From: an uncultured Candidatus Saccharibacteria bacterium
GTDB taxonomy: Bacteria > Patescibacteriota > JABMPQ01 > JAGQLO01
Direction of reading: 5' to 3'
Length of the DNA: 25,849 nt
Assembly (NCBI GenBank): GCA_964371425.1
Contig: CAYJMK010000001.1
Span: forward strand, 2,454 to 28,302
A program made the translations under genes and the position numbers. This document shows positions 1,168-18,626 of this stretch, piece after piece (positions within the stretch are counted from its first letter, which is position 1; each line of letters begins with the position of its first letter). The notes beneath the pieces were generated by a model. The model was not told the origin of the DNA, made no database searches, and saw only the letters and a list, made by a program, of their open reading frames with translations.

Positions 1168-1204
1168 AACATCTCTTCCATGGTGGAAGAGATGTTTTCG
1201 TTTT
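1168..1204. terminator. Intrinsic terminator between convergent genes (clear U-tract on + strand)
   Basis: Perfect 13-bp inverted repeat aacatctcttcca-tgg-tggaagagatgtt (1168-1196) followed by ttcgtttt. Confidence 0.8.
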
Positions 1205-4200
1205 ACGGTTTTTCTGTGCGTGTAGCAGAGGAGAGGAGTGGCAGACTTCCGTCATTTTTGAGGAAGGTGAATTGCAGATGTTCCGGCAGATTTGTCACGT
1301 CTCCGGGGAAATAGAATGAGATCAGACTTTCTTTGTCTGTCTGGAGTGTTTCTGTTCCTTCACAACGCACGACCTTTCCTTGTTCTGAGAGATCACACTC
1401 CCATCCTTTGTAGTAGCCGCGTTCGTTGATGTTGCTCTTGCAGTTGTTTGCGGTCGGGAGCGCAGGTTCTTGCTGAGGCATACGGATTTCGACGCCTCGG
1501 ACGCTTTTCGCAAGGGCTGCGTCAGTGATCTTGAGTCGGATCGTTAAAGCCGTCGTCGTCCTTCCGTTTGCGGTGGTGGTTTCCTTTTTGTAGGACGTTT
1601 TGATGGGACCCTCTGTTGGTTCTGTGGCCTCTGTTGTTCGACGTGTGTCTTGAGGTTGTCTCTGATCCTCCTCTTTTTTCGTGTCTGTCGGTTCTGTCTT
1701 TTTTGGAGGCAGCGAGATTGAAAAGTCTTTCAGCATTTCAATCTCCTGAATCTCACTGAGATCTTTCGGATCAATCGTTGGGGTGCCTTTGTTGTGTTCA
1801 ATCAGGACGCGACATTCCGTAGCGTCTTCAAATGCGGGTTCGTCTGTGTCGTAACTCCATACGGGGAAGGAAAAGAGGGTGAGGTCTTCATTCTCGTGGA
1901 CTTGCAGTGACCGGAATCGTACTTGATTTGGGGCGACTTCTTCCAACATGACTTCCGGTGGATTCTTTTTAGAGAAATGCTTCGCGATTTGGTTTGGTAA
2001 ATACTTTCGATATGAAGGGCCAAGTTCGATTCGATTTGGATCTTTTTCAAAATTATCTGTTCTAACAATCGTAAAGATCACCGATTCTCCATGCCGGATG
2101 ATCGCTATCTCTGGCAAACAAACGGTGGCGGTTGGTTCATCTTCTTCATCCCATCCAAAGAGATCTTGCAACGCACCGATGAGTGTTTCTCCAAGACGAC
2201 GTGTATTTTCTCCATCTTTTGTTTTCTGCGCAGGCTCACCGTCTCCATGCAAAATATAGATGACACAATCCGCTTCTGCTTCGTGTGTTGGATCTGCGTA
2301 GGAAGCGCGAGCTCCTAGGTGGAACACTTCGTACGAATCGGAACCGAGATCATGGACCGTTTGTGATTTCACCGTGTATGTTCCCTTGCCATTTTCTTCA
2401 ACGATGACACTTGGATCTGAGTCATATCGTTCGACTTGTCCTTTGAGATACTGCTTGTAGAAGGGGACAAGATCGATCGATGTCGGTTTCTCTGTGGCTC
2501 CTGTCTTCGACACAAACGAAACCGTTGCTTCTTTGCCATGTTCGATCATGACAACGAGAGGTGAACAAACAAGTCCGTACGGTTTCTCCTCTTCTTTATC
2601 TGTTCCTTCTGCGTTTCCGCCTGTGCGAACCACATCACGATCTTCTCCGTCTGGGAGATCGGGTGGTGGACTGGTGGTACCTGCGTGTTCGATCCAAATC
2701 GTACATCCACCAAGGGCTTCACTGCCGTCTGGATAGGTAGCGATGAAATTCACTGCGTCCGTTTCGAGATGACCCGACCCGTGTATTTTATTCGAGGTGT
2801 AGGAGAATCCTGCTTCTTGTGCGTCTTTGTCGAACCACGTGGCATGCAATGTTCGGCTCTGGTTGAGGGACGCGTCGATTTCTGGGTGCTCTCCTGAAGG
2901 GTCTTCGTCTGCGAATCGGACGGTGTCGAAGTCGAGTGAACCTTTTCCTTTTTTAATCAGGAAATTGACGGTTTGTCCGTGTTTCATATGGACATTCCCA
3001 GGTTCACAGAGGATCACGTGTTGCGTATCTTCCGCTGGCTCTTTCGCGGCGTCATCTCCTGTGCCAGCTACACCCTCTTTTCCCGCTCCATCTTTTGGTC
3101 CGGTTGTATCCGTTGGTTCTTTCGGCGTTCCAGGTTCTTCTGTTATCTTCTCGCCTCCCGTCACGTCTGATTCTTTCTTGGTCCCGTCGTCTTTTGGTGG
3201 AGGAACGACACCATCTGTCCCTGTGTCAGCTACTCCTGTTTTATCCGTCCCAGCATCTTTTTTGATGGTATCCGTTGCTGTGTCTGGCGTTCGTTTTTCT
3301 GCTGCGCCTGAACCAGCGTCCACGGCTGGGGGTTCAATGCTTTCGTCTTTCTTGTCGCCGGTTTTGTCATCTGCGCCAGCTGTTTTTTTCTCCCCATCCT
3401 TCGTGTCTGTACTTGCATTTCCCGCTCCACTCTTTGTCTGAACCGTCGGCTCTTTCTCTTTTTCCGGTTTTCGTGGTGGTTCCTCCACGCTTTGCTCCTT
3501 ATGAACAATCCAAACCGTGCAATCTTTGATGATGCTGGCTTCTTTTCCGAATCGAACACGCATCGGAATTGTTTCTACGTCCACCTGTTTACTGGCATGT
3601 TTTACAAGCGAGACAACTTCGTAACTCATCGCACCTGTTTTTGTGATCGTTCTTTTCTTGTCTTTCTTTCGGAAACCGATCGGGAGTTCTGTGTCTGTGA
3701 TGGGTATCGAACCTTTTGCAGTAGAGATGGTAAAGGTTCCTTTTGTGCCATGTTGTATGACCAGCGGATCAGGTTCACAGATGGCGCCGAATGCTTTGTC
3801 CGTTGGTGTGTCTGGTGGGAGTGCATGATGCGGCCCGTAATCTTCGACTTCTCCAGATGCAAACGCTCCACTTCCGTCTTCGGCCTTTGCTTGTTCGTTC
3901 AGGCTGATCACGGCTCGATACCAGAGATCTTCCGTTTCTCCTCCAGCTCGGAATTGTAAGCCATAGAGCTGAATGTCTTGTTCTTGTTTGGAGAGATCAA
4001 TCGGGAAGTTGCGCACGACCCATTCAGGTGCACATTGATCTCTTCCTCCCCAACGACCGTTTTTATCCCAGTCGAAATAGAGGTTGAGATAGGCAGTTCC
4101 TGTGGTCTTTCCGGGATGACGTACATGGACTGCCACTTCTGCCGTACTTGTTTGACAACGCTGCAGGTCAACGGCAACACCATCGTCGTATTCATCTTTG

Positions 4201-4571
4201 TCTGTCATGTTTGGTTCCCCTTCCCGATTCACCTTTTCGCCGAGCCAAACCTCTGATGTCTTTTTTGTGCGAGCACCGTTTGAGGCTGTGGTCGTCTTAA
4301 ACGTTCCTTGCATCACGCCGACCAGATAGCCTGTTGGGCGTCCGTCTGGCGCGTCACCAAAATCGAACGGGTCTGTGAGGCTCTCCCAGGAGTTATAATC
4401 TGTCCCGAGGAAGGAAATAAATCTATTTCCGTCTCCAAAATTGTACGTATCTTCATCGTTATTCCCGGATGAGCAGCCCACACCGAGGAGTGATAGACCG
4501 CCAACAGCGATGAGAGCGAAGAAGATGCTTCTTGGTTGCATAGGGTTTTGTTTGCGCGATTCACGCGACAT
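1203..4571 (-). CDS. Large secreted, probably lipid-anchored surface protein: GEVED-type domain, 4 Cys/His repeat domains, charged low-complexity linker and C-terminal Ig-like domain
   Basis: 1122-aa ORF; N-terminal hydrophobic stretch ending LLGVG-C (alternative start MQPRS); DFGDAP at aa 70 and GEVEDY at aa 240; D/E/K/T/G/P-rich linker at about aa 358-520. Confidence 0.85.
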   Translation of the reverse strand: MSRESRKQNPMQPRSIFFALIAVGGLSLLGVGCSSGNNDEDTYNFGDGNRFISFLGTDYNSWESLTDPFDFGDAPDGRPTGYLVGVMQGTFKTTTASNGARTKKTSEVWLGEKVNREGEPNMTDKDEYDDGVAVDLQRCQTSTAEVAVHVRHPGKTTGTAYLNLYFDWDKNGRWGGRDQCAPEWVVRNFPIDLSKQEQDIQLYGLQFRAGGETEDLWYRAVISLNEQAKAEDGSGAFASGEVEDYGPHHALPPDTPTDKAFGAICEPDPLVIQHGTKGTFTISTAKGSIPITDTELPIGFRKKDKKRTITKTGAMSYEVVSLVKHASKQVDVETIPMRVRFGKEASIIKDCTVWIVHKEQSVEEPPRKPEKEKEPTVQTKSGAGNASTDTKDGEKKTAGADDKTGDKKDESIEPPAVDAGSGAAEKRTPDTATDTIKKDAGTDKTGVADTGTDGVVPPPKDDGTKKESDVTGGEKITEEPGTPKEPTDTTGPKDGAGKEGVAGTGDDAAKEPAEDTQHVILCEPGNVHMKHGQTVNFLIKKGKGSLDFDTVRFADEDPSGEHPEIDASLNQSRTLHATWFDKDAQEAGFSYTSNKIHGSGHLETDAVNFIATYPDGSEALGGCTIWIEHAGTTSPPPDLPDGEDRDVVRTGGNAEGTDKEEEKPYGLVCSPLVVMIEHGKEATVSFVSKTGATEKPTSIDLVPFYKQYLKGQVERYDSDPSVIVEENGKGTYTVKSQTVHDLGSDSYEVFHLGARASYADPTHEAEADCVIYILHGDGEPAQKTKDGENTRRLGETLIGALQDLFGWDEEDEPTATVCLPEIAIIRHGESVIFTIVRTDNFEKDPNRIELGPSYRKYLPNQIAKHFSKKNPPEVMLEEVAPNQVRFRSLQVHENEDLTLFSFPVWSYDTDEPAFEDATECRVLIEHNKGTPTIDPKDLSEIQEIEMLKDFSISLPPKKTEPTDTKKEEDQRQPQDTRRTTEATEPTEGPIKTSYKKETTTANGRTTTALTIRLKITDAALAKSVRGVEIRMPQQEPALPTANNCKSNINERGYYKGWECDLSEQGKVVRCEGTETLQTDKESLISFYFPGDVTNLPEHLQFTFLKNDGSLPLLSSATRTEKP
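1794..3779 (-). repeat. Four protein-level repeats of 93-109 aa inside the 1122-aa protein (nt 3501-3779, 2685-3008, 2247-2567, 1794-2120)
   Basis: Each copy has C-x-P-x6-H-G ... S-x3-H ... C-x5-H; alignment read by eye from the translation. Confidence 0.85.
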
Positions 4572-5675: not shown

Positions 5676-6107
5676 ATGCCAACGATCCACCAACTCGTGC
5701 GACGCCCCCGTCGGTCGCTTCGCTCTAAGTCTAAGTCACCTGCGCTCATGCGCCGGTTTGATTCGTTGCACAAGAAGCCGAGTGTTCTCCGGAAAGGCTC
5801 TCCCTTCATGCGTGGTGTGTGTGTCCGTGTGACCACCACAACGCCAAAGAAGCCAAACTCTGCTCTCCGAAAGATTGCTCGTGTTCGTTTGACGAACGGC
5901 ATGGAAGTGACGGCTTATATTCCGGGTGAAGGTCACAACTTGCAGGAACACTCTATTGTCACCATCCGTGGTGGCCGTGTGAAAGACTTGCCAGGTGTGC
6001 GTTATCACATTGTCCGTGGTGTGTTGGACACGTCCGGCGTGGATGGTCGCAAACAGGGTCGTTCCCGTTACGGAGCGAAGAAGTCTTCTGGTGCCGGCAA
6101 GAAATAA
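5676..6107 (+). CDS. rpsL: 30S ribosomal protein uS12
   Basis: [22 protein letters not shown] and [13 protein letters not shown] motifs. Confidence 0.99.
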
Positions 6108-6113
6108 TCTCCT

Positions 6114-6584
6114 ATGGCTCGTCGCTCTCGTGCTATCCGTCGTCCAACCGTTGCTGATCCGCGCTTCCACAGCGAGTCTGTTGCACGTCTTATCAACTAC
6201 TTGATGGAAGGTGGCAAGAAGTCTGTTGCCTCCAGTGTCGTCTACGGTGCCATGGATATGGTTGCTGAAAAAACGAAGTCGGAACCGCTCGAAGTGTTCG
6301 ACAAAGCGATGCGGAATGTGGCACCAGCGCTTGAAGTGAAAGGTCGTCGTGTGGGTGGAGCCAACTACCAGGTTCCGTTTGAAGTGAAAGGTCACCGCCG
6401 TACGATGCTAGCCTTCCGTTGGATCTTGGATGCTGCTCGCAGCAAAAAAGGTGCCCCCATGGCAGAGCGTTTAGCGCGTGAATTGGTGGAAGCATCCCGT
6501 GGGGAAGGTGCTGCCATGAAGAAGCGTGAAGACGTTCAGAAGATGGCAGAAGCCAACCGAGCGTTTGCTCACTTCGCTCGCTGA
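6114..6584 (+). CDS. rpsG: 30S ribosomal protein uS7
   Basis: RRVGGANYQVP and KMAEANRAFAHF motifs; directly follows rpsL. Confidence 0.99.
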   Translation: MARRSRAIRRPTVADPRFHSESVARLINYLMEGGKKSVASSVVYGAMDMVAEKTKSEPLEVFDKAMRNVAPALEVKGRRVGGANYQVPFEVKGHRRTMLAFRWILDAARSKKGAPMAERLARELVEASRGEGAAMKKREDVQKMAEANRAFAHFAR

Positions 6585-6603
6585 TTCCATTTGATCTTGG
6601 TGT

Positions 6604-6634
6604 GAACGACGCGCTCTGGCGCGTCGTTCGTTTT
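6604..6634 (+). terminator. Intrinsic terminator after rpsG
   Basis: Perfect 11-bp stem gaacgacgcgc-tctg-gcgcgtcgttc followed by gtttt. Confidence 0.75.
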
Positions 6635-6699
6635 GCGTAGAGTCCGAATCTGTTTTGTGCTATCTTTTCTGTACGCATCACGCATCCAGAAATCAACAC

Positions 6700-8427
6700 A
6701 TGCCTCGTTCGTCTCCTGCCTCTGTCTCTGTATCCCATGCACTCCTTCCGCAAACGGAAGATGTCTTTGTGCAAGCCAAGGGTGGCATCTTAATCTCGCC
6801 TGATCAGCTTGCACACGTTGAGCGAGCCTACACAAAGGCGACGCGTTCGCGTGATCGTCGTGGTCCCGGTTCTCTTGCTGGACAGCGTCATGGTGTGTCA
6901 TGGCGTGTCGGTTTTATTGTATTCGGTGTTCTTTTTATGATCGGATTGGGCGGTGCTGGTTATTACATGCTTCAGCGCACCAAACCGCTTTCTTCATATG
7001 GTTCTCTCTTTCCGCAAAGCGACGACTTGGCGGTATCTTCAAAAAAACCTGAAGTCACGTTAGATGATTATTCTTCTGGTTTGAATGAGTTTTCGCGCAC
7101 CTTCCAGCAGCCTGATGCAGATCGCGATGGAGATGGTCTGACGGAAGAACAAGAAAATGAGCAAGGGACCGACCCTCTCAATGCTGATACCGATGATGAT
7201 GGATATACAGATGGGGAAGAAGTGAAGAATGGCTACCCACCGACAATACCTGCACCCATTGCAAAGTCCATGACAGTAAAAACGAATACTGATGCGGTCT
7301 ATGAACAGACAGAGACAGGACTTTCTTTTCACTATCCTGCAGGAACGAAACTTTCTGCGCCGGTGATTGTGGATGGCGAGATTGCTGAAGGAACCGACGT
7401 TCGTTTTCCTTATTTAAAAGTGTTTGAGATTTCAACGTTGACGGATCCCACCTCACCTTTTGGATTCATTCCGCTCGTATCATGGCAAGAAGCGCGTCAG
7501 CTTTTGGACGCTGTCGATGTTCCTTCGGCATCTTTGTCGACCGTGAAGGCTGTGATTCCGATTTATGGCGATTTTCTGGTTGGGGATGGTGCGAAGCCGG
7601 TGTTTTTAGAAGGTTCTGTCTTTACAGCGGCCTCGCGTGCTCGTGCGTACGAAGGGTATTACACGCTGGATGAGGGTGATCCACAGCCCACGCTTGCTCG
7701 CGTGACAACGTTTATTGAGAACGATCGTTTCTCGTATCAGTTTATTGCGTTCTTCCGTGGGAAAACGATTTCTCCCGCAGATCTTTTAGCGCAGTTACGT
7801 GCGGGTTCTGCTTCTTCGGATCTGCAAGCTGCGTATGATTTGTATGGAACGATCATTGCTTCTGTCGATATTGCGCGTGCGACAAAACCTGTTGCTCCTG
7901 TGGCGGCCACGGTTCCTACTGTTGAACCTTCTCAGCCGTCTTCTCCTTCCTCTATTCCTTCTTCTTCGGTCCTTTCAAGCGCTCAAGAGATTTTCGATAC
8001 GTTTCTTGCGAAACCAGATACAACGTCCTGGCAGAACTTTAAGCCGGCGCGTATGCCTCTTTCCTTCAAGCTTCCTCCTTCTTGGTATTACGCTGACTGT
8101 GGGGCGCGTGTTGGCCTACACTCCTCTTCGGTCAATGACTTCTGTACCGATCAAGATGCATCTCTTGTTATTGAGGTTTCGGATACAGCTCCAGATGTGA
8201 TTGCTGCACAACGTGTCTCTGTTCTCCAAATGCCTGTTTCTTCTTCTGTTGTCTTGTCTGGATTGTCCGCGCAACGTGTTCAAGGAAAAGAGCAAGGGAA
8301 TGATGTTGATTTGGTTGTGTTTGCTCGCGATCGTAAGACCTACGTTTTTTCGTTCACTGGTGCTTCTTCTGACGATCTTGCCCATGTGGATGTTTTTGCG
8401 GGACTTCTTGCCACCCTGCATTTTTAG
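6700..8427 (+). CDS. Single-pass membrane-anchored surface protein with a TSP3-like acidic Ca-binding motif and two PsbP-like segments
   Basis: ATG at 6700 preferred over the tracked 6655; TM VGFIVFGVLFMIGLGGAGYYML; DxDxDGL...GTDPLNADTDDDGYTDGEE; motifs YEQTETGLSFHYP and WQNFKPARMPLSFKLPPSW. Confidence 0.8.
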   Translation: MPRSSPASVSVSHALLPQTEDVFVQAKGGILISPDQLAHVERAYTKATRSRDRRGPGSLAGQRHGVSWRVGFIVFGVLFMIGLGGAGYYMLQRTKPLSSYGSLFPQSDDLAVSSKKPEVTLDDYSSGLNEFSRTFQQPDADRDGDGLTEEQENEQGTDPLNADTDDDGYTDGEEVKNGYPPTIPAPIAKSMTVKTNTDAVYEQTETGLSFHYPAGTKLSAPVIVDGEIAEGTDVRFPYLKVFEISTLTDPTSPFGFIPLVSWQEARQLLDAVDVPSASLSTVKAVIPIYGDFLVGDGAKPVFLEGSVFTAASRARAYEGYYTLDEGDPQPTLARVTTFIENDRFSYQFIAFFRGKTISPADLLAQLRAGSASSDLQAAYDLYGTIIASVDIARATKPVAPVAATVPTVEPSQPSSPSSIPSSSVLSSAQEIFDTFLAKPDTTSWQNFKPARMPLSFKLPPSWYYADCGARVGLHSSSVNDFCTDQDASLVIEVSDTAPDVIAAQRVSVLQMPVSSSVVLSGLSAQRVQGKEQGNDVDLVVFARDRKTYVFSFTGASSDDLAHVDVFAGLLATLHF

Positions 8428-8436
8428 AAGTGTGCG

Positions 8437-10191
8437 ATGAACGAAGATTCCAAACTGTCCCGACATACGTTCTTGTCTGGGCGTTTGGATACGCTTTCTG
8501 GATCGCTCATTGGAGCGTTGTTTACGCTCTTGACCGGTGTGCTCTTGTTTTACGCATGGCGCGCTTGGGATAATCCATCAGAATATGTGAGTACTGCTGC
8601 GCGTACGTCTATTCGTTCTGATGTTGCTTTAGCAGAAACTGTTCCACTGCCTGATCCCGCTGCGGGATGGAAAACGTATCGCAACGAGCACTACGGTTTC
8701 CAGGTGATGATTCCAGCTTATTGGGAGCCGAGTGATGCGGCTGCAACGGCTGAGGCGGTCTCCTTTGATACTCTCGAGCGGCAGGCGATCTTAACGCGTC
8801 TCCCTATTGAAGGATATATCGCTCCTGTCGAGGTTTATGTGTTTGATCGCGATGCATTGACTTTGCAAGCGACGAAAAATCCTGTTCAGTCCACACCACC
8901 GTCGTCTGCGTTTACAGAAGAACGGGATGTGATGATTGGAACGCAATTGTTTCGGCAGATGAAGTATGTCGGTTCTTCTACGCCGGGTGGTGGGCCACGT
9001 TGGTATTACATTCCTGCTGGTCAAAAGACAGAAACACCTCCGTACGCATTCTCCGCTCTTGAAGATGCTCAGTCCGTTTTATTGTCAATGTTGCGTTCGT
9101 TTGAACCGCTTTCCGCTGCAACGGCTTCTTCCACCCTTTTGAAAGCGGCATCGTTTAGGTATCTCAGGTCTTCGGTTGCAGGAGGGTCTGAAGTTGTTGG
9201 AAACGAACTGCGTGGTGCGATCGTTCGTGAGACGGTTCGTGTTCAATTACCTGTGATGAATGAAGCGATTGTTGCGGCCGATATCGATCCGACTCGTACA
9301 AAGCTTTTGTATAGCACTGCGAAGGTTGTACGTATGCGGGAGCTGGATGCTGGAACAGACTCTGTCTTGTTTTCGACGGGGACTGGAGATGCTCCCGATG
9401 GTTCTATTCCGCTGACTTCGCTGCAGTTTTCTCCAGATGGTTCTTTTGTTTCGTTTGTCTTTTCTGATCGTGTGCATACGCGGATCTCTATCATGAATCT
9501 CAAAACACATGCATTTTCTTGGAAGGATATTTCTGTTGGCCAGCCGCTGTTTTTGTGGGTTGATGCTCGACGGTTCTTGTTTGTTTCTGACGCGGGTTTG
9601 TTAACGCTTGCTGATGTTTCGCAAGATGGTATACGTTCTTTTCAATCGGATGTGCTTTCTGATGTAAAGGCGATGGTTCCCTATGCAGTCGCCTTCACAA
9701 CAGATCGGACGCGACTTGCTGTTTTAGCGGTGGGTCCTGCCGCAGCTTCAGAACAGGCATCGGCGGGGACCCGTCATGCCTTCCTGTTCTTGATCGATCC
9801 ACAGCTGGCGGACGTTGGGACGACTCGTTTACTGGAAACGGTAGATCTTGGGTTACCCATCACGGAGGCGGCTGAGCACCCTGCATCGTTTGGGTTGGCT
9901 TTCTCACCGGATGGGCAGCGTATCATTTTATCGGTTGAAGACCGTATTTGGGTTGCGGGTGCGGGTCGGCTCGAGACCTTTCGACCGGATCCATCTGTCA
10001 CACGGCAGGGACGTGTTTTAGGTACCCTGTCTTCTGGTGAATTGCTTATGAACCAATCTGCCCGTAATCCCGCGGGAGATGTGATTGGTGGACGTCTCTT
10101 ACTCCTTGACCCAGAGGGAGAGATACAACGTTTTGCTTCTTCTGTTGGTGCGAGCTCTGTTCTCCTTTCTTCTTTTGTTCTTTCACCTTGA
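8437..10191 (+). CDS. Single-pass membrane-anchored protein with a PsbP-like domain and a C-terminal TolB/WD40-like beta-propeller
   Basis: N-terminal TM; WKTYRNEHYGFQVMIPAYW motif; repeated FSPDG blade-like motifs (LQFSPDGSFV, LAFSPDGQRI). Confidence 0.75.
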   Translation: MNEDSKLSRHTFLSGRLDTLSGSLIGALFTLLTGVLLFYAWRAWDNPSEYVSTAARTSIRSDVALAETVPLPDPAAGWKTYRNEHYGFQVMIPAYWEPSDAAATAEAVSFDTLERQAILTRLPIEGYIAPVEVYVFDRDALTLQATKNPVQSTPPSSAFTEERDVMIGTQLFRQMKYVGSSTPGGGPRWYYIPAGQKTETPPYAFSALEDAQSVLLSMLRSFEPLSAATASSTLLKAASFRYLRSSVAGGSEVVGNELRGAIVRETVRVQLPVMNEAIVAADIDPTRTKLLYSTAKVVRMRELDAGTDSVLFSTGTGDAPDGSIPLTSLQFSPDGSFVSFVFSDRVHTRISIMNLKTHAFSWKDISVGQPLFLWVDARRFLFVSDAGLLTLADVSQDGIRSFQSDVLSDVKAMVPYAVAFTTDRTRLAVLAVGPAAASEQASAGTRHAFLFLIDPQLADVGTTRLLETVDLGLPITEAAEHPASFGLAFSPDGQRIILSVEDRIWVAGAGRLETFRPDPSVTRQGRVLGTLSSGELLMNQSARNPAGDVIGGRLLLLDPEGEIQRFASSVGASSVLLSSFVLSP

Positions 10192-10199
10192 GATCACGT

Positions 10200-10565
10200 A
10201 TGTCTTCTCATGATGCTGCATCTCTTTCGGTCCCAGTCCATTCGAAAAAACGATTCTGGATCCTCCTGGTGTTATTTCTTGTTGTCCTTGGTTACGGTGT
10301 TTTTCTTCAGATACGTGTTCGTCAAATGCAAAAACAACTTGTGCAGGAGGCCTCAAGTTCTGCTTCGCCACTCGGAGTGTGTCAGGCGATGCGTGATCGT
10401 GATGCAACTGAATTGAGCCGTCTGCGGAGAGATGTGACGGAAGCCCGTGATGGACGTATTGCTTCCGAACAAAAGGAAAGTGTGTGTTTGACACAACTTG
10501 GATTAGCACAGCAGCGTGCGGCGGCTGCGTCGCCCTCTTTTTCGACGGCTACGCCGACGCCGTAG
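10200..10565 (+). CDS. Small bitopic membrane protein with a C-terminal coiled coil
   Basis: ATG at 10200 (alternative TTG at 10188 overlaps the previous stop); KKR + TM helix, then Q/R/E-rich helical region. Confidence 0.7.
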   Translation: MSSHDAASLSVPVHSKKRFWILLVLFLVVLGYGVFLQIRVRQMQKQLVQEASSSASPLGVCQAMRDRDATELSRLRRDVTEARDGRIASEQKESVCLTQLGLAQQRAAAASPSFSTATPTP

Positions 10566-10680
10566 GATTGTTCTAGACGATGCTGTGTTTATGGCTTGGT
10601 GATTCTACGTGCGCCTTTTCGTTCTGTCGTATTAGCGATAGGGTTTCTTGGTCTCCGCTTCGTTTTCTTTTTTTCTCTGT

Positions 10681-12321
10681 GTGAAAGCCTCTGATCTCTT
10701 TGCGGCCTGCTTGAAGAACGAAGGTGTTTCGTGGGTGTTTGGCGTGCCCGGCGAAGAGAATTTGGATTTACTCGAGTCGTTGCGAGAGGTGGGCATTCCG
10801 TTTATCACGACACGTCATGAGCAAGGTGCGGGCTTCATGGCTGCCACGGTTGGTCGGTTGACCGGTAAGGCTGGGGTTGCGTTGTCGACGCTTGGTCCTG
10901 GGGCAACAAACTTAGTGACTGCTGCGGCGTATGCACAGTTGGGTGGAATGCCGGCTGTGTTTATCACGGGTCAGAAACCTGTGCGACGCAGCAAACAGGG
11001 CGCGTTTCAGATTGTAGATGCGAGTCATGTGTTGCGACCTGTCACAAAACACACAGAGTCTGTTTCGAGTGGTGATCGGATTCCTGCCTTGGTGCGGAAT
11101 GCGTTTCGGCTTGCGGAAGAAGAGCGGCCTGGTGCCACACATCTGGAATTACCAGAAGATATCGCCGCAGAATCGACGGAGGCCATTCCTTTTTTTGCAG
11201 AAAAAGTTCGGCGGCCTGTGGCGGAAGAAAAGGCTCTACGTTTAGCGTGTGAAATGATTCAAACAGCACGTAAACCATTGTTGTTGGTCGGTGCTGGAGC
11301 GAATCGGAAACGCACAGCGAAGATGCTGCGTGCGTTTATCGATAATACGCACATCCCGTTTTTGACGACGCAAATGGGGAAAGGTGTCTTGGATGAGCGA
11401 GATCCGTTGTATCTTGGGACAGCTGCACTCTCTACTTCTGATTATGTACATTGTGCGGTGGATGCAGCGGATTTAATCATCAATGTTGGACATGATGTTG
11501 TGGAGAAACCGCCGTTTTTGATGCGTCCGGATGGGCCCAAGGTTTTGCACGTGAATTTTTTTCCTGCACAGTTTGATGCCGTGTATTTCCCGCAGCGCGA
11601 AGTGATTGGAGATATTGCGAACGCACTTTGGCAGATCACGGAACAGATCACGGTGTCGAAGGAGTGGGATTTTGCCTATTTCTTGAAAGTCCGAGCGAAA
11701 ATCGCTGAGCGTTTTGCAGGGGTCGATACAGATGACCGGTTTCCCATGTCTCCGCAGCGGCTCGTTGCGGATGTGCGCGCAGCTGTCCCAGACGATGGGA
11801 TTGTTTCGCTCGACAACGGCATGTACAAACTCTGGTTTGCGCGACACTACAAGGCCTATCAGCCAAGTACGCTCTTGTTGGACAACGCGTTAGCTACCAT
11901 GGGTGCTGGGTTGTCTTCGGCTGTGGCTGCAAAGCTGGTTTTCCCGGATCGTCGTGTGGTGGCGGTGTGTGGCGATGGGGGATTCTTGATGGGCGGTCAG
12001 GAATTGGAGACAGCGGTTCGTTTGAAGCTCGATCTCCCAATTCTTGTCTTGAACGATGGTGCGTACGGCATGATTCGTTGGAAGCAGGATGCCATGGGGT
12101 TCCCAGGTCATGCGTTGTCGTTTGGGAATCCGGATTTTGTGAAGTATGCAGAGAGTTTTGGAGCACACGGGCATCGGGCTCAGACGGCTGGTGATGTGAA
12201 GTTGTTCCTTGAACGTGCGTTTGAAGAAGGCGGCATACATCTGATTGATGTTCCTATTGATTACGAAGACAATCGGCATGTGTTGACGAACGAATTGAAA
12301 TATAAGTCGTGTCCCGTTTAG
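10681..12321 (+). CDS. Thiamine-diphosphate enzyme of the acetolactate-synthase-like family; probable 2-oxoacid decarboxylase (OgdA-like)
   Basis: GTG start giving MKASDLF...FGVPGEEN; RHEQ catalytic Glu; LGPGATN; GDGGF-x-ND ThDP/Mg motif; no small regulatory subunit nearby. Confidence 0.88.
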   Translation: MKASDLFAACLKNEGVSWVFGVPGEENLDLLESLREVGIPFITTRHEQGAGFMAATVGRLTGKAGVALSTLGPGATNLVTAAAYAQLGGMPAVFITGQKPVRRSKQGAFQIVDASHVLRPVTKHTESVSSGDRIPALVRNAFRLAEEERPGATHLELPEDIAAESTEAIPFFAEKVRRPVAEEKALRLACEMIQTARKPLLLVGAGANRKRTAKMLRAFIDNTHIPFLTTQMGKGVLDERDPLYLGTAALSTSDYVHCAVDAADLIINVGHDVVEKPPFLMRPDGPKVLHVNFFPAQFDAVYFPQREVIGDIANALWQITEQITVSKEWDFAYFLKVRAKIAERFAGVDTDDRFPMSPQRLVADVRAAVPDDGIVSLDNGMYKLWFARHYKAYQPSTLLLDNALATMGAGLSSAVAAKLVFPDRRVVAVCGDGGFLMGGQELETAVRLKLDLPILVLNDGAYGMIRWKQDAMGFPGHALSFGNPDFVKYAESFGAHGHRAQTAGDVKLFLERAFEEGGIHLIDVPIDYEDNRHVLTNELKYKSCPV

Positions 12322-12339
12322 TGCCTTTTGCATTCTCTT

Positions 12340-13707
12340 ATGGCGATCCAGAGTTGTAATCCAGTGACAGGGGAGACACTTGCTTCGTTTGAGGAGTTCA
12401 CCCATGACGCATTAGAACATGCGCTGCATCAGGCGCATCAAACGTTTCTTATGTGGCGCGCTGTTCCGTTGGAAGATCGGCTGGTGCCGCTCCAGCGTTT
12501 AGCGGTGTTGTTTAAAGAGCGTGCGCCGCAGTTAGGTGCACTGGCCACAGCAGAAATGGGTAAGCCGATCACGCAAGCCATCGCGGAAGTGGAGAAGTGT
12601 GCCACCGCTTGTGAGCACTATGCTGAGCAAGCGGCTACCTATCTTGCTCCGGAAGAAATCGCTTCTGATGCTTCGCGTAGTTATATTCGTTTTGATCCTC
12701 TCGGTGTGGTGTTGGCGGTTATGCCATGGAACTTTCCGTACTGGCAGGCGGTCCGATTTCTCGCACCAGCGCTTGCGGCGGGGAATGTTGGGTTGTTGAA
12801 ACATGCGTCCAACGTGCCGCAGTGTGCAAAGGCACTTGAGCAGATTGTATTAGATGCTGGGTTCCCGAATGGCGCGTTCCAAAATCTGTTTTTGAGTTCT
12901 GCGCGTGTGGAAGGCGTGATTCGTGATCCGCGCGTTGTCGCAGTGACGCTGACGGGAAGTGAACCTGCGGGGAAATCCGTAGCTGCTACCGCAGGCAGTG
13001 AGATCAAGAGAACCGTCTTAGAACTTGGAGGGAGTGATCCGTTTCTGGTGTTTGCGGATGCCGATTTAGCGTTGGCGGCTCAGACGGCGGTGAAGGCTCG
13101 ATTTCAGAACGCGGGTCAAAGTTGTATTGCGGCTAAGCGATTTTTGGTCGAGCAGGCTGTTTACGAACCGTTTCTGGCAGCGTTCGTGAAAGAAACATTA
13201 ATGCTGAAGGTTGGCGATCCAGCTGATCCAGAAACCGCCATGGGTCCGGTTGCTTCTGAGCGGGCTTGTCACGAACTGGAACAGCAGGTTCATGCATCTT
13301 TAGCTCAAGGGGCCCGTCTTGTTTTAGGAGGGACACGGTTACCGCATTTAGGTCCTTCCTTTTTTGCGCCTACCATTTTGGCAGATGTGCCAACAGATGC
13401 TCCTGTTGCGTGTGATGAAACGTTTGGCCCTGTTGCTGCCGTTCTTCCGTTTCAAGACGAAGCCGAAGCGATCGCCTTAGCGAATGCGACGCCGTTTGGA
13501 TTGGGTTCTGTTGTCTTCACGCAACAGAAAGAACGTATTCAACGTCTTGCTGAAGGTCTTGAAGTTGGGTGTGTTTTTGTGAATGGCATGGTCAAATCTG
13601 ACCCGCGGTTGCCGTTTGGTGGGATCAAATGTTCCGGCTATGGCCGTGAACTTTCCAAAGAAGGCATGCGTGCATTTTGCAACATGAAAACGGTTTGGAT
13701 CGCTTAG
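12340..13707 (+). CDS. NAD(P)+-dependent aldehyde dehydrogenase, succinic-semialdehyde dehydrogenase (GabD1/Sad/SsaD-like) subfamily
   Basis: MPWNFP, LKHASNVPQ, TLTGSEPAG, LELGGSDP (catalytic Glu), GQSCIAAKR (catalytic Cys), ETFGP and SDPRLPFGG..SGYGREL motifs. Confidence 0.92.
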   Translation: MAIQSCNPVTGETLASFEEFTHDALEHALHQAHQTFLMWRAVPLEDRLVPLQRLAVLFKERAPQLGALATAEMGKPITQAIAEVEKCATACEHYAEQAATYLAPEEIASDASRSYIRFDPLGVVLAVMPWNFPYWQAVRFLAPALAAGNVGLLKHASNVPQCAKALEQIVLDAGFPNGAFQNLFLSSARVEGVIRDPRVVAVTLTGSEPAGKSVAATAGSEIKRTVLELGGSDPFLVFADADLALAAQTAVKARFQNAGQSCIAAKRFLVEQAVYEPFLAAFVKETLMLKVGDPADPETAMGPVASERACHELEQQVHASLAQGARLVLGGTRLPHLGPSFFAPTILADVPTDAPVACDETFGPVAAVLPFQDEAEAIALANATPFGLGSVVFTQQKERIQRLAEGLEVGCVFVNGMVKSDPRLPFGGIKCSGYGRELSKEGMRAFCNMKTVWIA

Positions 13708-13744
13708 AGCTCGGAATAAAAAAACAACGTCGGTCGTGGCGTCG

Positions 13745-13773
13745 TTGACGCCTTCCCTGACCTTCCGTATGCT
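13745..13773 (+). promoter_or_regulatory. sigma70-type promoter dedicated to fusA
   Basis: TTGACG-17 nt-TATGCT, 72 nt upstream of the fusA ATG. Confidence 0.75.
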
Positions 13774-13845
13774 CCCCGCGCACATCTCTGTGGGCGCGCC
13801 TTTTTCAGATCGGCGCGTCGTCATGCGTTACCAACCGAAATCGTT

Positions 13846-15960
13846 ATGCCTGCTGACTCCACCCTCGAAAAGACCCGCAATATCGGTATTATCGCCCACA
13901 TCGATGCGGGTAAGACGACGGTGACCGAACGCATTCTGTTCTTCACTGGTGTCTCGCATAAAATTGGTGAAGTGCACGAAGGCGACACGGTCATGGACTG
14001 GATGGAGCAGGAACGTGAACGTGGTATTACGATTACCTCCGCTGCAACCACCTGTTTCTGGAAGCCGATGTATGATCCGTCGCTCGGGGACTACCGGATC
14101 AACATCATCGACACACCGGGCCACGTGGACTTCACCGTAGAAGTGGAGCGTTCCTTGCGCGTGTTGGACGGCGCAGTCGTTGTCTTTGATGGAAAAATGG
14201 GTGTTGAGCCGCAATCCGAAACCGTTTGGCGGCAAGCGAACAAATACAACGTGCCGCGGGTCTGCTTCGCTAATAAAATCAACTTAGTGGGTGGATCGCT
14301 GGTCAACACGTTGAAATCGATTCACGAACGTCTCGATCCGAATGCGTTCCTTATTTGGTACCCCTACGGCGAAGGCGAAGAAAACAAAGGCGTCATCGAT
14401 CTGATCACGCGTCAGCTCTACACTTACGAAGGATCTGACGGACGTGAGCTGTCTGCGCCTCAAGATGTGCCTGCAGACTTTACGGATGTAGTGGAAAAAA
14501 CACGAGTTGAGATGATCGATCACATCGCCAACGGTGATGACGAGATCGCGGAGAAATATCTCGAAGGAACTGAATTATCCGTAGAGGAATTACGCGCAGC
14601 GCTGCGTCGTGGTGTCCTTTCTGGGAAATTGCACCCTGTCACTGGAGGAGATGGTCGCAAGGCGGTCATCAAACTTCTCCTTGACCAAGTCATTGCCTAC
14701 TTGCCGAGCCCACAAGACGTGGGTGCGGTGAAAGGAACGGATCCAAAATCAGGCGAAGAGCTTGAACGCAAACCAGAAGATAGCGAACCGTTTTCCGGCT
14801 TGGCTTTTAAGGTCGCTTCTGATCCCTTCGTTGGGAAATTGATTTTCGTGCGTGTCTACTCTGGCGTGTTGAAATCTGGTTCGTATTTGATGAACTCCAC
14901 GAAGCGTGAAAAAGAACGCGTGGGCCGCGTGCTCTTGATGCATGCGAACAAACGCGAAGAATGTGACGAAGTGCACGCGGGGAACATTGCCGCGGTGGTT
15001 GGTCTGAAGAGCACCACTACCGGTGACACGCTTTGTGATATCGACAAACCCATCATTCTTGAGCAGATCACCTTTCCAGAGCCGGTCATTTCTGTCGCCA
15101 TTGAACCCAAGACAAAAGCAGATCAAGAAAAATTAGGAAATGCTTTGAAGGCGATGGTCGAAGAAGATCCGACCTTCCGTGTTCGTACAGATCACGAAAC
15201 GATGCAGACCGTCATTTCTGGCATGGGGGAACTTCATCTCGAAATTATTGTCGACCGCATGAAGCGCGAGTACGGCGTTGAAGCCAACGTTGGTGCGCCT
15301 CAAGTGGCGTACAAAGAAACGATTCGTGGCACGGTGGAGGCCGAAGGGAAGTTCATCAAGCAGACCGGTGGTCGTGGTCAGTATGGCCACGTCTGGCTCA
15401 AGCTTGAGCCGTTGGAAGCGGGTAAGGGCTATGAATTTGCGAACGAAATTAAAGGCGGTTCTATTCCACAGGAATACATCAGCCCTGTCGACAAAGGTGT
15501 TCAAGAAGCGCTCGCAGGTGGTGTGATTGCTGGTTTCCCCGTGCTCGACGTGAAGGTGACCCTCTTCGACGGATCCTTCCACGATGTCGACTCCTCTGAA
15601 GCGGCGTTCAAGATTGCTGGTTCGATGGCGCTTAAAGAAGGTGTCCGGAAAGCGAACCCGGTTCTGCTTGAACCTCTGATGAAGGTTGAAGTCTTCACTC
15701 CGGAGAAATCCATGGGTGATGTGATTGGGGACCTCAATGCACGGCGCGGAACGATTGAAGAAATGTCAGACCAGAGCGGCGTGAAACTGGTAAAAGCCAA
15801 AGTACCGCTCGCGGCTATGTTTGGGTACGCCACACAGTTGCGCTCGCTTTCTCAGGGTCGTGCAAACTACGCCATGGAATTCGCAAACTACCAGGAAGTT
15901 CCTCGTAACGTTGCAGAAGAAATCATCGCGAAGCGATCAGGGATCTCTCGCCGCGGGTAA
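13846..15960 (+). CDS. fusA: Elongation factor G with non-canonical G4 and G5 motifs
   Basis: 704 aa; G1 [10 protein letters not shown]2 RGITI, G3 [24 protein letters not shown] and HDVDSSE all present; G4 reads NKIN and G5 reads GGDGRK. Confidence 0.98.
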
Positions 15961-15984
15961 AAAAAGGCCCAGCTTGAGCTGGGC
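15959..15984 (-). terminator. Intrinsic terminator for the minus-strand unit converging on fusA
   Basis: gcccagct/agctgggc inverted repeat (15967-15984) preceded on + by an A7 run, which is a U-tract on the minus strand. Confidence 0.7.
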
Positions 15985-16004
15985 AACGAAACGGATGCGT
16001 GGGG

Positions 16005-16027
16005 CGCCGATCCTCAGAGGATCGGCG
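16005..16027. repeat. Perfect 11-bp inverted repeat
   Basis: cgccgatcctc-a-gaggatcggcg; the stop codon of the minus-strand small ORF sits at its apex. Confidence 0.85.
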
Positions 16028-16253
16028 GATTGTTCCTGTGCGCGGTTGACCCGATGCCTTCCATGTCGGCGCGACTGAAGTCCGGGTGCTGACCGATCGC
16101 TTCAGGTGCCATCGCCGGCTCGGTCGGCCTTGTCACAGCCGTAGCTGCACGGCGCATGGCGATGCGCTCTGCACGCGCCATCGCGTACACTGTCTGGTCT
16201 AGTGCACTTCTGACGTTGATCAGACCTTTTCCCGGAATATGAACGAACGGCAT
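16014..16253 (-). CDS. Putative 79-aa small protein (MPFVHIPGKGLINVRSALDQ...); the transcript could instead be an sRNA
   Basis: GGAGG 4 nt before the ATG; flanked by its own promoter and terminator; no family recognised. Confidence 0.45.
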   Translation of the reverse strand: MPFVHIPGKGLINVRSALDQTVYAMARAERIAMRRAATAVTRPTEPAMAPEAIGQHPDFSRADMEGIGSTAHRNNPPIL

Positions 16254-16322
16254 GTCTCCTCCCATGAGAATGTACAGGGCCGGCACGTGTCGGCCGCGAA
16301 TGATCCATCACAGATGCAGGCG

Positions 16323-16350
16323 AGTCTATCTTCCGTGTTGTTCGTGTCAA
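16323..16350 (-). promoter_or_regulatory. sigma70-type promoter of the antisense unit
   Basis: Minus strand TTGACA-16 nt-TAGACT. Confidence 0.65.
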
Positions 16351-16412
16351 GCAGCAGAAGGTGCGATACACTCCGCAGTGTAAAAGAACAGCAAGATAAG
16401 AAATAACAGCCT

Positions 16413-17300
16413 ATGACTCCATCTGCCTTCTCTCCATCTCAGAGTCCAGCTTCCGTCACTCCTCCCATTGCTCCGTCTAAGAAAAAAAACACCCTTCTTT
16501 TCTGGATCGTCCTGTCCTCCTGCACCATTATTGGACTCCTTGTCGCGCTCGTTTTGTTCTTGTTGTTCCGTGGTCCGGCTCAGTCTCTGACGGCTGCGGA
16601 TTTGGCTGCTGTTGATCTGTCTGCATTGCCTTCCGAGGATATTTCATCACAAGACTCGGAACCTGCTGTTACAGACACAACAACAGACGCGGATACCGTT
16701 GTTTCTCCTCCTCAAAAGACGACGACCACTCCTGCGCATGCACGTTTTCAAAGTAAACTTCTTCCGTTTTCATTCGTTCCTCCCAAAGCGTGTGCTGCTG
16801 TTCCGCAGGAAGCACTGTTCACATCTGCTTCTGATGAAAATATCGTGCGTGGAACATCCTACAATGCGGTTCTGATGTCTGTTGGAGAAATTGCTGCGCA
16901 GAATTGTCCCATGGTGATTGGCAGCATGTCCGCGAATTTTTACTCAAAGATCGCACGGGGTGGGACGCCGCTTGATTTGATTGGATTTGAATATCGAAAA
17001 GCTCAGGACGAACTCTTCCTTCCTGTTTGGTGGGCAAAAGAGGATGTTTCTGGTTACACCATGAAACAAGTGAAAGCGATTAAAACTCTGACGGGCGAGA
17101 CTGCGTACACAGCACAAGCTCCAAGTGTCTTTGATGCGGAGAGTGGTGTTGATATTGTCGGTGTTGTGGCCTTGCCTGCAGGCACTTCTCCTTCTGTTCT
17201 TCTCTTCTATGCAGGTACTGAGCAGGGTCAAGCAGGTGCGATGCGTGAAGCGATTGAGTCTCTTGTTGCCAGCGTGAAAATCCAGTCGGAAAAGGAATAG
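16413..17300 (+). CDS. Single-pass membrane-anchored surface protein with a T/S/D linker and a PsbP-like C-terminal domain
   Basis: KKKN + TM helix; low-complexity linker; RFQSKLLPFSFVPP motif; C-terminal ESLVASVKI ending typical of PsbP-like folds. Confidence 0.75.
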   Translation: MTPSAFSPSQSPASVTPPIAPSKKKNTLLFWIVLSSCTIIGLLVALVLFLLFRGPAQSLTAADLAAVDLSALPSEDISSQDSEPAVTDTTTDADTVVSPPQKTTTTPAHARFQSKLLPFSFVPPKACAAVPQEALFTSASDENIVRGTSYNAVLMSVGEIAAQNCPMVIGSMSANFYSKIARGGTPLDLIGFEYRKAQDELFLPVWWAKEDVSGYTMKQVKAIKTLTGETAYTAQAPSVFDAESGVDIVGVVALPAGTSPSVLLFYAGTEQGQAGAMREAIESLVASVKIQSEKE

Positions 17301-17325
17301 AGGAATACCCCCGAGATGGGGGGCC

Positions 17326-17353
17326 TTGCGTGCTTCAAAAAGATTGCTATAGT
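17326..17353 (+). promoter_or_regulatory. Promoter of tuf-rpsJ (extended -10)
   Basis: TTGCGT-16 nt-TATAGT with a TGn extension. Confidence 0.65.
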
Positions 17354-17403
17354 AGCTAAGACGTTTGTGCAAACATTTTCTTCGTTTGTTTTGATCTATT
17401 CCT

Positions 17404-18591
17404 ATGGCCGAAAAGTTTGAACGCACCAAGCCACACGTGAACATCGGTACGATCGGTCACGTGGACCACGGCAAGACGACTCTTACAGCAGCTTTGTTGT
17501 CGGTTCTTGCTGGAGCTGGTCAGAAAGCGACAAAGAAGTCGGTTGATGAAATCGACAACGCCCCTGAAGAAAAGGAACGTGGGATTACGATCGCGACATC
17601 TCATTGTGAATACGAGTCTGACAAGCGTCACTACGCCCACGTTGACTGTCCAGGACACGCTGACTACATCAAGAACATGATCACGGGTGCTGCCCAGATG
17701 GACGGTGCCATCTTGGTGGTTGCGGCAACAGATGGCCCTATGCCACAGACACGTGAGCACATCTTGCTTGCACGTCAGGTTGGTGTGCCCAAGATCGTTG
17801 TCTTCCTGAATAAGGTAGACATGGTTGACGATGCGGAACTGATTGACCTCGTTGAAGAGGAAATCCGCGAATTGCTGACCAAGTACGAATTCGATGGTGC
17901 CAACACGCCGGTCATTCGTGGCTCTGCGTTGAAAGCTCTTGAGGACCCAACCGGTGAGGCAGGAAAGCCTGTCCTTGCGCTCGTTGAGGCTCTCGACACT
18001 TTTATTCCTGACCCAAAACGTGAGACAGACAAGCCATTCTTGATGCCGATCGAAGACATCTTCTCGATTGAAGGTCGTGGCACAGTGGTCACAGGTCGTA
18101 TCGAGCGTGGTGTTGTGAATATCAATGAAGAAGTCGAAATCATCGGCATTCACCCAACGGTGAAGACGGTTGTGACGGGTATCGAAATGTTCAACAAGAC
18201 CTTGGATCGTGGTGAAGCTGGTGACAACGCCGGTGTTCTCCTCCGCGGAACAAAGAAGGAGGACGTCATGCGTGGTCAGGTCTTGGCCAAACCAGGAACG
18301 ATTACGCCTCACACAGAATTCACAGCTGAGGTTTACATCTTGACGAAGGAAGAAGGTGGTCGCCACACAGCGTTCTCCAAAGGCTACAAACCTCAGTTCT
18401 ACGTTCGTACGACAGACGTGACAGGAGAAATCGAATTGGCAGCTGGGACAGAAATGGTCATGCCTGGTGACACAACCACGTTCACAGTGAAGTTGATGGT
18501 GCCCGTCGCCATGGAAGAAGGTATGCGCTTCGCCATCCGCGAAGGTGGACATACGGTTGGTGCCGGTGTCGTGACAAAGATCATTAAGTAA
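17404..18591 (+). CDS. tuf: Elongation factor Tu
   Basis: [23 protein letters not shown] and GSAL motifs all canonical; 395 aa. Confidence 0.99.
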
Positions 18592-18626
18592 ACGGATTCG
18601 TTCCGTTCTATCTCTTGTACCCTGGC

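Follow-up and report, generated by a model that had tools for sequence, protein, structure and literature searches.

The gene fusA for elongation factor G (EF-G) is located in a stretch of 25,849 nucleotides that was deposited as DNA of an uncultured Candidatus Saccharibacteria bacterium (contig CAYJMK010000001.1 of assembly GCA_964371425.1) and that is called "the window" here at its full length. Both base-reading motifs of this EF-G are rewritten, with NKIN as the G4 motif and GGDGRK as the G5 motif. The two changes represent one conserved design, NK[ILV]N paired with [GA]DxR, and not two mutations. As judged from the sequences compared, a charged pair was moved between the loops, from D146/R147 to N/L on the G4 side and from S269/L271 to D/R on the G5 side, which would keep the chemical inventory around the base with a swapped assignment to the loops. 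The pocket rebuilt in this way probably still reads guanine, and the EF-G would still be driven by GTP. An original prediction, made by a model from the sequence alone, had described the protein as a candidate non-GTP or relaxed-specificity translocase and had offered three options: use of ATP or of another nucleoside triphosphate (NTP), escape from (p)ppGpp inhibition, or a compensatory Asn/Asp swap that keeps GTP. It had overlooked that G4, the G′ subdomain, and G5 form a module with its own phylogeny, which moves between EF-G genes.

The rewritten motifs of the EF-G

By every test except that of the two base-reading motifs, the fusA product would be classified as a bona fide EF-G. Direct reading of the window revealed an intact frame of 704 codons for amino acids and, in agreement with the original prediction, canonical G1 to G3 motifs and later domains. 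All five domains, G (with G′), II, III, IV, and V, were found far over the cut-off by the Pfam models GTP_EFTU, GTP_EFTU_D2/EF-G_D2, EFG_III, EFG_IV, and EFG_C. The EF-G equivalog model TIGR00484 scored 1064.6 bits at a cut-off of 659.4, and in the same equivalog scan the models for EF-G2, Tet-protection proteins, RF3, LepA, and BipA remained below their cut-offs. Solved EF-Gs aligned end to end with the protein, with about 870 to 880 bits and about 60% overall identity. The G2 motif RGITI is canonical and identical in the relatives. The acidic helix of the G′ subdomain, ...DDxLxEKYL.G, is common to the block consensus of the variant and the canonical forms; in canonical EF-G, the acidic G′ region is the contact to L7/L12 (PMC3150367). 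The features of the family that are missing are NKxD at G4, which reads NKIN, and (G)SA(L/F) at G5, which reads GGDGRK.

The codons and residues given for both motifs in the original prediction were exact on re-reading. Among the assembled contigs of public runs, one from run X1, probably the source sample, covers positions 13986 to 15074 with 0 differences. Contigs from another study (X2, 14181 to 14388 and 14548 to 14717; X3, 14623 to 14816) also showed 0 differences at both motifs, and no alternative letters appeared at either motif in any of these contigs. Since both sites were reproduced by the contigs of a second study, the codons are not assembly errors, a possibility that the original prediction had named as decisive against itself. 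The source genome (G000; 886 kb in 157 contigs, 87% complete) contains a single match of EF-G length, and no second, canonical fusA was found in it at this completeness. One EF-G per genome was present in 39 of 40 relatives, which are the 39 with a match, and 34 of these genomes are at least 90% complete. The best explanation is that this fusA is functional and encodes the only EF-G of a Paceibacteria-like Patescibacterium.

Direct reading of G4 and G5 covered about 280 EF-Gs. A total of 172 combined NK[ILV]N with [GA]-D-x-R, 110 combined NKxD with G-[ST]-[AS]-[LFY], and 0 were mixed, a pairing much too strict for chance. The sequences came from the genomes of the 40 relatives, 80 named GTDB loci, 120 database proteins, and 45 further Patescibacteria genomes, with some of them possibly seen twice; the 80 loci are among the matches listed in the variant-block alignment scan with generic patterns (ETVW.QA.) and are no census. 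N146, D269, and R271 were invariant in all variant sequences, and the x in [GA]-D-x-R was G, N, S, T, or F. According to the source names, a Saccharibacteria sub-type with NKINQ[TI]GGDF and GGDGRGVIVE and a Woesebacteria sub-type with NKLNLIGADF and GGDNR could be distinguished, and TGDGR, ADGR, and GGDFR occurred as rare G5 forms. The view of coordinated, selected changes in the original prediction was borne out by these counts.

The alignment of EF-Gs across Patescibacteria that had been recommended there placed the variant form in about 142 of 392 genomes (36%), Saccharibacteria/TM7 included, from an even sample of 401 genomes, 392 of which had a match to the EF-G block. This number is an estimate that depends in part on score and family, and if G162, an unpublished genome, is left out, it becomes 141 of 391. 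It is composed of 111 genomes with E ≤ 2.5e-94 on the variant profile, for which 20 of 20 spot-checked sequences from 19 families were variant, plus the families f24 (19 genomes), f9 (5), and f11 (5) and the genomes G001 and G345. Low-scoring members of f63, f60, f108, and f122 were canonical but divergent when read directly. Assignment of the form by the variant-profile score alone was rejected, because divergent variants and canonical blocks overlap at 1e-83 to 1e-92; this was resolved by reading 45 sequences. Among the matches listed, the 71 non-variant EF-Gs of other phyla were canonical apart from a single case from Bacilli. An apparent insertion of 33 residues in the EF-G of a relative from the same family (L023, G001:C43), which has 33 unknown residues after the position matching q106, was also rejected, because the assembly has only N at this place.

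In a 72-row alignment of 31 variant and 41 canonical EF-Gs, few columns split the two forms cleanly. Position 146 was N in 31/31 variant and D in 41/41 canonical rows, and position 269 was D in 31/31 variant rows and S or T in 40/41 canonical ones. Position 147 was R (23) or K (13) in the 41 canonical rows and L (17), Q (11), or I (2) in the 31 variant rows. On the side of G5, position 267 changed from C/A/T to G, and position 271, two residues behind the G5 Asp, from L/F/Y to R in all variants; N273 and K274 were lost, together with a deletion of one residue. The sub-type of the window gained a Leu at 147, whereas canonical EF-G has a Leu at 271.

A G4-G′-G5 module with its own history

A tree calculated without residues 130 to 290 sorted the EF-Gs broadly by taxon into Paceibacteria-like, Saccharibacteria, and Microgenomatia-like proteins, and the variant state needed 9 changes on this tree. 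A careful tree without residues 130 to 310 needed 10 changes, with a bootstrap range of 9 to 11 and at least 5 changes forced by well-supported branches, and no bootstrap tree of this rest of the gene showed a single change or united the variants. The tree of the block itself was built from 134 columns, with the columns of the G4 and G5 motifs taken out first. It united all 31 variants behind a branch with 97/87 support, and one change was sufficient in 98% of the bootstrap trees. Approximately unbiased (AU) tests rejected congruence from both sides: the data of the rest of the gene rejected monophyly of the variants (delta lnL of 171, p = 1e-4), and the block data rejected a clade of 12 rows that exists only in the tree of the remaining gene (delta lnL of 63, p = 2e-5).

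The same conflict was visible at short range. The GTDB families f8, f17, and f20 hold both forms according to direct reading, and f50 does so as judged from one variant sequence and the canonical-like scores of the others. Pairs of canonical and variant EF-Gs within a family were 80 to 100% identical outside the region of about residues 135 to 310 and 10 to 55% identical inside. The EF-G of the window was nearer to canonical EF-Gs from its own order everywhere except at about residues 100 to 200 and 250 to 290, where it was nearer to variants from distant lineages. The G+C content at third codon positions (GC3) is 0.52 in the exchanged block, 0.65 in the upstream part of fusA, and 0.57 in the downstream part, a modest difference that is consistent with a foreign origin but no proof.

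The block trees show that the variant module had a single origin, as far as can be derived from these sequences. The conflict between the trees suggests that, by homologous recombination, a block of about 180 codons repeatedly replaced its counterpart among the fusA genes of Patescibacteria, variant by canonical as well as canonical by variant. G4 and G5 are 120 codons apart, yet no half-and-half product was seen, which would fit selection against mismatched loops.

One position outside the module follows the same pattern. Position 33 was Tyr in 40/41 canonical and in 1/31 variant rows, with F, I, R, E, or N in the variants, and R29 (13930 to 13932) is changed to Gly in the Saccharibacteria-type form. 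In three within-family contrasts (loci L008, L017, L025, L027, L127 to L130, and L132), position 33, with R29G, switched together with the module. Either there is a structural coupling between the end of helix α1 and the G4/G5 pocket, with these changes as compensation, or they mark a second, very short exchanged tract.

Probable guanine reading by the rebuilt pocket and its alternatives

An AlphaFold2 model of residues 1 to 300, calculated with a 41-row alignment, reached a pTM (predicted template modeling score) of 0.83 and a pLDDT (predicted local distance difference test) of at least 90 over residues 110 to 290, with only switch I disordered. In this model, NKIN is located at the end of the strand 138 to 143, GGDGR at the end of the strand 263 to 267 before the helix 274 to 285, and helix α1 comprises residues 23 to 33. 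Foldseek TMq values of the G/G′ model against solved EF-Gs were 0.80 to 0.86. Both motifs are thus predicted to occupy the canonical G4 and G5 positions in an unchanged scaffold.

In the canonical pocket, the Asp of G4 accepts hydrogen bonds from N1-H and N2-H2 of guanine, the Leu or Phe of G5 packs on the purine, and the backbone of a G5 residue reads O6. In the variant, the lost carboxylate of G4 and its basic neighbor would come from the G5 loop, two strands away, in which G-S-A-L/F became G-D-x-R. The O-delta of Asn146 and the carboxylate of Asp269 may jointly accept the hydrogen bonds, the Asn146 carbonyl that from N1-H and Asp269 that from N2-H2. The N-delta of Asn146 would donate to Asp269 and fix the orientation of the amide, a contact of inverted polarity compared with the canonical one, and Arg271 would stand where the canonical Leu or Phe packs on the purine. 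The two loops may work only as a matched pair, which would fit the absence of half-and-half forms. With the P-loop, the switches, the catalytic His, the acidic G′ helix, and domains II to V unchanged, the factor would stay a guanine-nucleotide-driven, ribosome-activated translocase. An arrangement with a carboxylate from outside G4 has precedent, because in about one-fifth of the solved GTP-binding proteins NKxD is missing and N1/N2 is read by an Asp or Glu from elsewhere (PMC11594714).

Two cases seem to have arrived at the same position independently. The single EF-G of an uncultured Bacilli gut metagenome-assembled genome of about 1 Mb (L172, the same locus as L104; G401:C11:3740-5800) is 76% identical to a canonical relative but has NKMG as its G4 and C-A-D-A-L as its G5. 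An unrelated lineage has thus also lost the G4 Asp, and an Asp again occupies the exact position of the G5 Ser; because Gly has no side chain, G4 itself retains none that could read the base edge. The EF-Tu of genome G031 (L180, family f24) reads NKFG with GDAL, apparently the same move of the Asp in another translational GTPase. The relocated charge pair, the Asp at the same G5 position in Bacilli, and the interchangeability of the modules within families make continued reading of guanine the favored interpretation, and it is considered probable. This is also the fate of the third option in the original prediction, the Asn/Asp swap that keeps GTP, in support of which the charge relocation, the Bacilli case, and the replacement of modules within families without any other visible change can be cited.

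Several observations weigh against this interpretation. The engineered Asp-to-Asn exchange at G4, as in EF-Tu D138N and Ras D119N, switches GTPases to xanthosine triphosphate (XTP). G4 and G5 travel in one block, which means that their perfect co-occurrence is in part due to linkage, and the contrasts between G4 and G5 on well-supported branches were concordant in 3 of 3 cases, which are too few for significance. The hydroxyl of the G5 Ser contacts the G4 Asp in structures of Ras and EF-Tu, a contact for which no confirming paper was found. Co-folding of the G domain with Mg gave scores of 0.66 for GTP, 0.86 for ATP, 0.74 for CTP, and 0.68 for S-adenosylmethionine, which allow no verdict by the calibration of the tool itself and were not used as evidence. 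Finally, some EF-Tu proteins from the Patescibacteria families f24 and f98 are devoid of the G4 Asp, and those of G105 (L179, NKFP/GSAL) and G212 (L178, NVFG/GSAL) have no Asp at G5 either, indicating that relocation is a repeated solution but not the sole route in this phylum.

It is unlikely that the rebuilt pocket changed or relaxed its base specificity and that translocation is driven by a nucleotide other than GTP, be it similar to XTP or inosine triphosphate (ITP), ATP, or any purine NTP. The exchange at G4 is the classic switch of engineered GTPases, the G5 position of the backbone contact to O6 becomes G, N, S, T, or F and one residue behind G5 is deleted, EF-Tu of some families of the candidate phyla radiation (CPR) also lost the G4 Asp, which would be pocket drift beyond EF-G, and ATP scored higher than GTP in co-folding, albeit with a tool that states that its scores say nothing. 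On the other hand, the invariance of N146, D269, and R271 speaks for a specific ligand and not for relaxed recognition. The pocket keeps an acidic group beside the base edge, where adenine offers no donors, the independent Bacilli EF-G keeps only the G5 Asp, and canonical and variant modules are swapped within families. Moreover, the other GTPases checked in the source genome keep NKxD (EF-Tu with NKVD, IF-2 with NKMD, LepA and BipA with NKID, and Der with NKAD and NKWD), and this genome encodes two guanylate kinases and NDK. Nothing in the comparative evidence favors a non-GTP translocase, the headline of the original prediction. Its option of ATP or another NTP also lost ground with the two guanylate kinases and NDK and with the distribution of guanylate kinase in the order of the window, where neither RelA/SpoT (8/9 variant and 5/6 canonical genomes) nor guanylate kinase (2/9 and 3/6) was linked to the form of EF-G; this gives no support to the ideas of an energy parasite or of a ppGpp escape. 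A match to the guanylate kinase family PF00625 was not found in 11 of the 16 genomes of this order (G002, G005, G006, and G008 to G015), several of them 97 to 100% complete, with either form of EF-G. The far-reaching version, that the translocase of about one-third of the Patescibacteria, among them human-associated Saccharibacteria, is not strictly GTP-dependent but uses ATP, ITP, XTP, or several of them, and that EF-Tu followed in some classes so that elongation is partly uncoupled from the guanine pool, is somewhat more doubtful still.

Less probable again is a guanine-reading module that was selected for affinity or regulation, by weaker binding of GDP or (p)ppGpp or by faster exchange, to tune the factor of slow-growing epibionts or to escape stringent inhibition. 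A long RelA/SpoT is present in the source genome and in 14/16 genomes of the order, and a carboxylate displaced by about one residue layer from the base would plausibly change the affinity. However, the presence of RelA/SpoT does not track the form, and ppGpp shares its base with GTP and GDP, so that the base pocket cannot discriminate between them; the escape from (p)ppGpp that the original prediction had offered fails for the same reasons. A history free of recombination, with the variants as one vertical lineage or as several convergent ones and the tree conflict as a reconstruction artifact, is very unlikely. The block is short, no other part of EF-G evolves as fast as G′, neighboring columns could be pulled along by selection on the pocket, and the GC3 value of the block is only modestly off those of its flanks; but the motif columns had been removed before the block tree was built, the AU tests rejected congruence in both directions, the bootstrap trees of the remaining gene never grouped the variants, and three families hold both forms with 80 to 100% identity outside the block. 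That the sequence is an assembly artifact or an inactive paralog, with a canonical EF-G elsewhere, might be considered because the source genome is only 87% complete, but it is hardly credible in view of the intact frame, the high TIGR00484 score, the one EF-G in each of the 39 relatives with a match, the independent contigs identical at both motifs, and the presence of the design in about 36% of the phylum sample.

Genomic setting and comparison with known systems

The features of the window are compiled in Table 1. The statement that fusA sits in the str locus was only loosely true. The gene adjoins tuf, with one open reading frame (ORF) in between (interval 15961 to 17403), and the S10 operon, but the str cluster is split, with rpsL and rpsG located 7.2 kb upstream of fusA. 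The interval between rpsG and fusA (6585 to 13845) contains four unrelated genes, for a 590-residue TSP3-repeat protein, a 584-residue ORF product without a family match, an acetolactate-synthase-like thiamine pyrophosphate enzyme (NF006187, 829 bits), and an aldehyde/succinate-semialdehyde dehydrogenase. The neighboring tuf reads NKVD and GSAL and is indeed the internal control that the original prediction had seen in it. Elsewhere in the window, an ORF of 1122 codons is located on the minus strand at 1203 to 4571.

Table 1. Features of the window around fusA (positions are those of the window; aa, amino acid positions of EF-G)
Feature	Position	Strand	Basis or remark
rpsL	5676-6107	+	Pfam S12; upstream part of the str cluster, displaced
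rpsG	6114-6584	+	Pfam S7; upstream part of the str cluster, displaced
fusA, 704 aa	13846-15960	+	ORF; five EF-G Pfam domains; TIGR00484, 1064.6 bits
G1/P-loop AHIDAGKT, aa 17-24	13894-13917	+	Canonical; identical in 30/30 relatives
F33, last residue of helix α1	13942-13944	+	Tyr in canonical EF-G; outside the module
G3 DTPGH, aa 89-93, with catalytic His	14110-14124	+	Canonical; identical in relatives
Exchanged G4-G′-G5 module, aa ~135-310	14248-14775 (approximate borders)	+	Identity profiles, trees, AU tests
G4 motif NKIN, aa 143-146 (aat aaa atc aac)	14272-14283	+	Asn146 in place of the guanine-reading Asp
L147	14284-14286	+	Basic residue (R/K) after the canonical G4 Asp lost
G′ subdomain, aa ~160-258	14323-14619	+	Inside the module; acidic DDxxxEKYLEG helix kept
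G5 motif GGDGRK, aa 267-272 (gga gga gat ggt cgc aag)	14644-14661	+	In place of CGSALK, one residue fewer after it
ORF, 295 aa	16413-17300		No family match; between fusA and tuf
tuf (EF-Tu)	17404-18591	+	Pfam/TIGR; canonical NKVD at 136, GSAL at 173
rpsJ	At 18615 (S10 operon)		Pfam; downstream of tuf

No paper that describes an EF-G without the Asp of NKxD was found in a literature search, with subscription-only papers outside its range, in line with the original prediction, which knew of no biochemical description. Added by the present analysis are the swap of the charge pair, the coupling of Tyr33/Arg29 outside the block, the comparison of RelA/SpoT and guanylate kinase within the order, the confirmation by contigs, and the EF-Tu proteins with neither the G4 nor a G5 Asp. 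NKxD counts as a nearly universal fingerprint of GTPases, and a very large radiation that includes human oral TM7, available in host co-culture, runs its ribosomes with an EF-G without the fingerprint Asp. If GTP is still used, this would be a natural, selected rebuild of a specificity pocket from a neighboring loop, of use in the engineering of GTPases and in annotation by motifs; if GTP is not used, translation would have changed its energy currency. Where fusA serves as a phylogenetic marker of the CPR, the exchange of a module within a core gene of translation is also relevant.

Canonical EF-G (EFG I; Thermus thermophilus 1DAR/2BV3, Staphylococcus aureus 2XEX, and Escherichia coli 7N2C) shares the five domains, G1 to G3, the catalytic His, the acidic G′ helix, and the status of a sole copy near tuf with the EF-G of the window. 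The latter differs by NKxN-L/Q instead of NKxD-R/K, by GGDxR instead of (C/A/T)G(S/T)A(L/F)KNK with one residue fewer, and by the absence of Tyr33. A survey of the family found NKxD and gSAx conserved in both EFG I and EFG II (PMC3150367). The EF-G from Bacilli resembles that of the window as a sole EF-G with a lost G4 Asp and an Asp at the same G5 position, but it is from outside the CPR, independent, and has a Gly at G4, no Arg two residues behind the G5 Asp, and an otherwise canonical G5 (ALANKG).

The engineered mutants (EF-Tu D138N, Ras D119N, and the equivalents in Ypt1 and Ran) carry the same substitution at the same position as the window, but they are point changes from the laboratory without compensation, while in the variant EF-G the change occurs in nature, has become fixed across a large clade, and never lacks the new Asp and Arg at G5. 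The state of the XTP mutants, Asn at G4 with an unchanged G5, is not present in the window: G5 is rewritten in every natural case. The "D/E plus" proteins share the carboxylate from outside G4 and belong to other families (PMC11594714), whereas the loss occurred here in a family in which NKxD is invariant elsewhere. YchF/Ola1 and SpoIVA are proteins with a TRAFAC GTPase fold that turned into ATPases with a degenerate G4 and a measured use of ATP (PMC3583859, PMC7952092). They are similar to the EF-G of the window as natural G4 alterations in a translation-associated or GTPase-derived P-loop protein. However, YchF possesses NxxE and no relocated Asp, SpoIVA lacks NKxD entirely, and neither is an essential elongation factor; the protein of the window reads NKIN and not NxxE, and it has the architecture of an EF-G.

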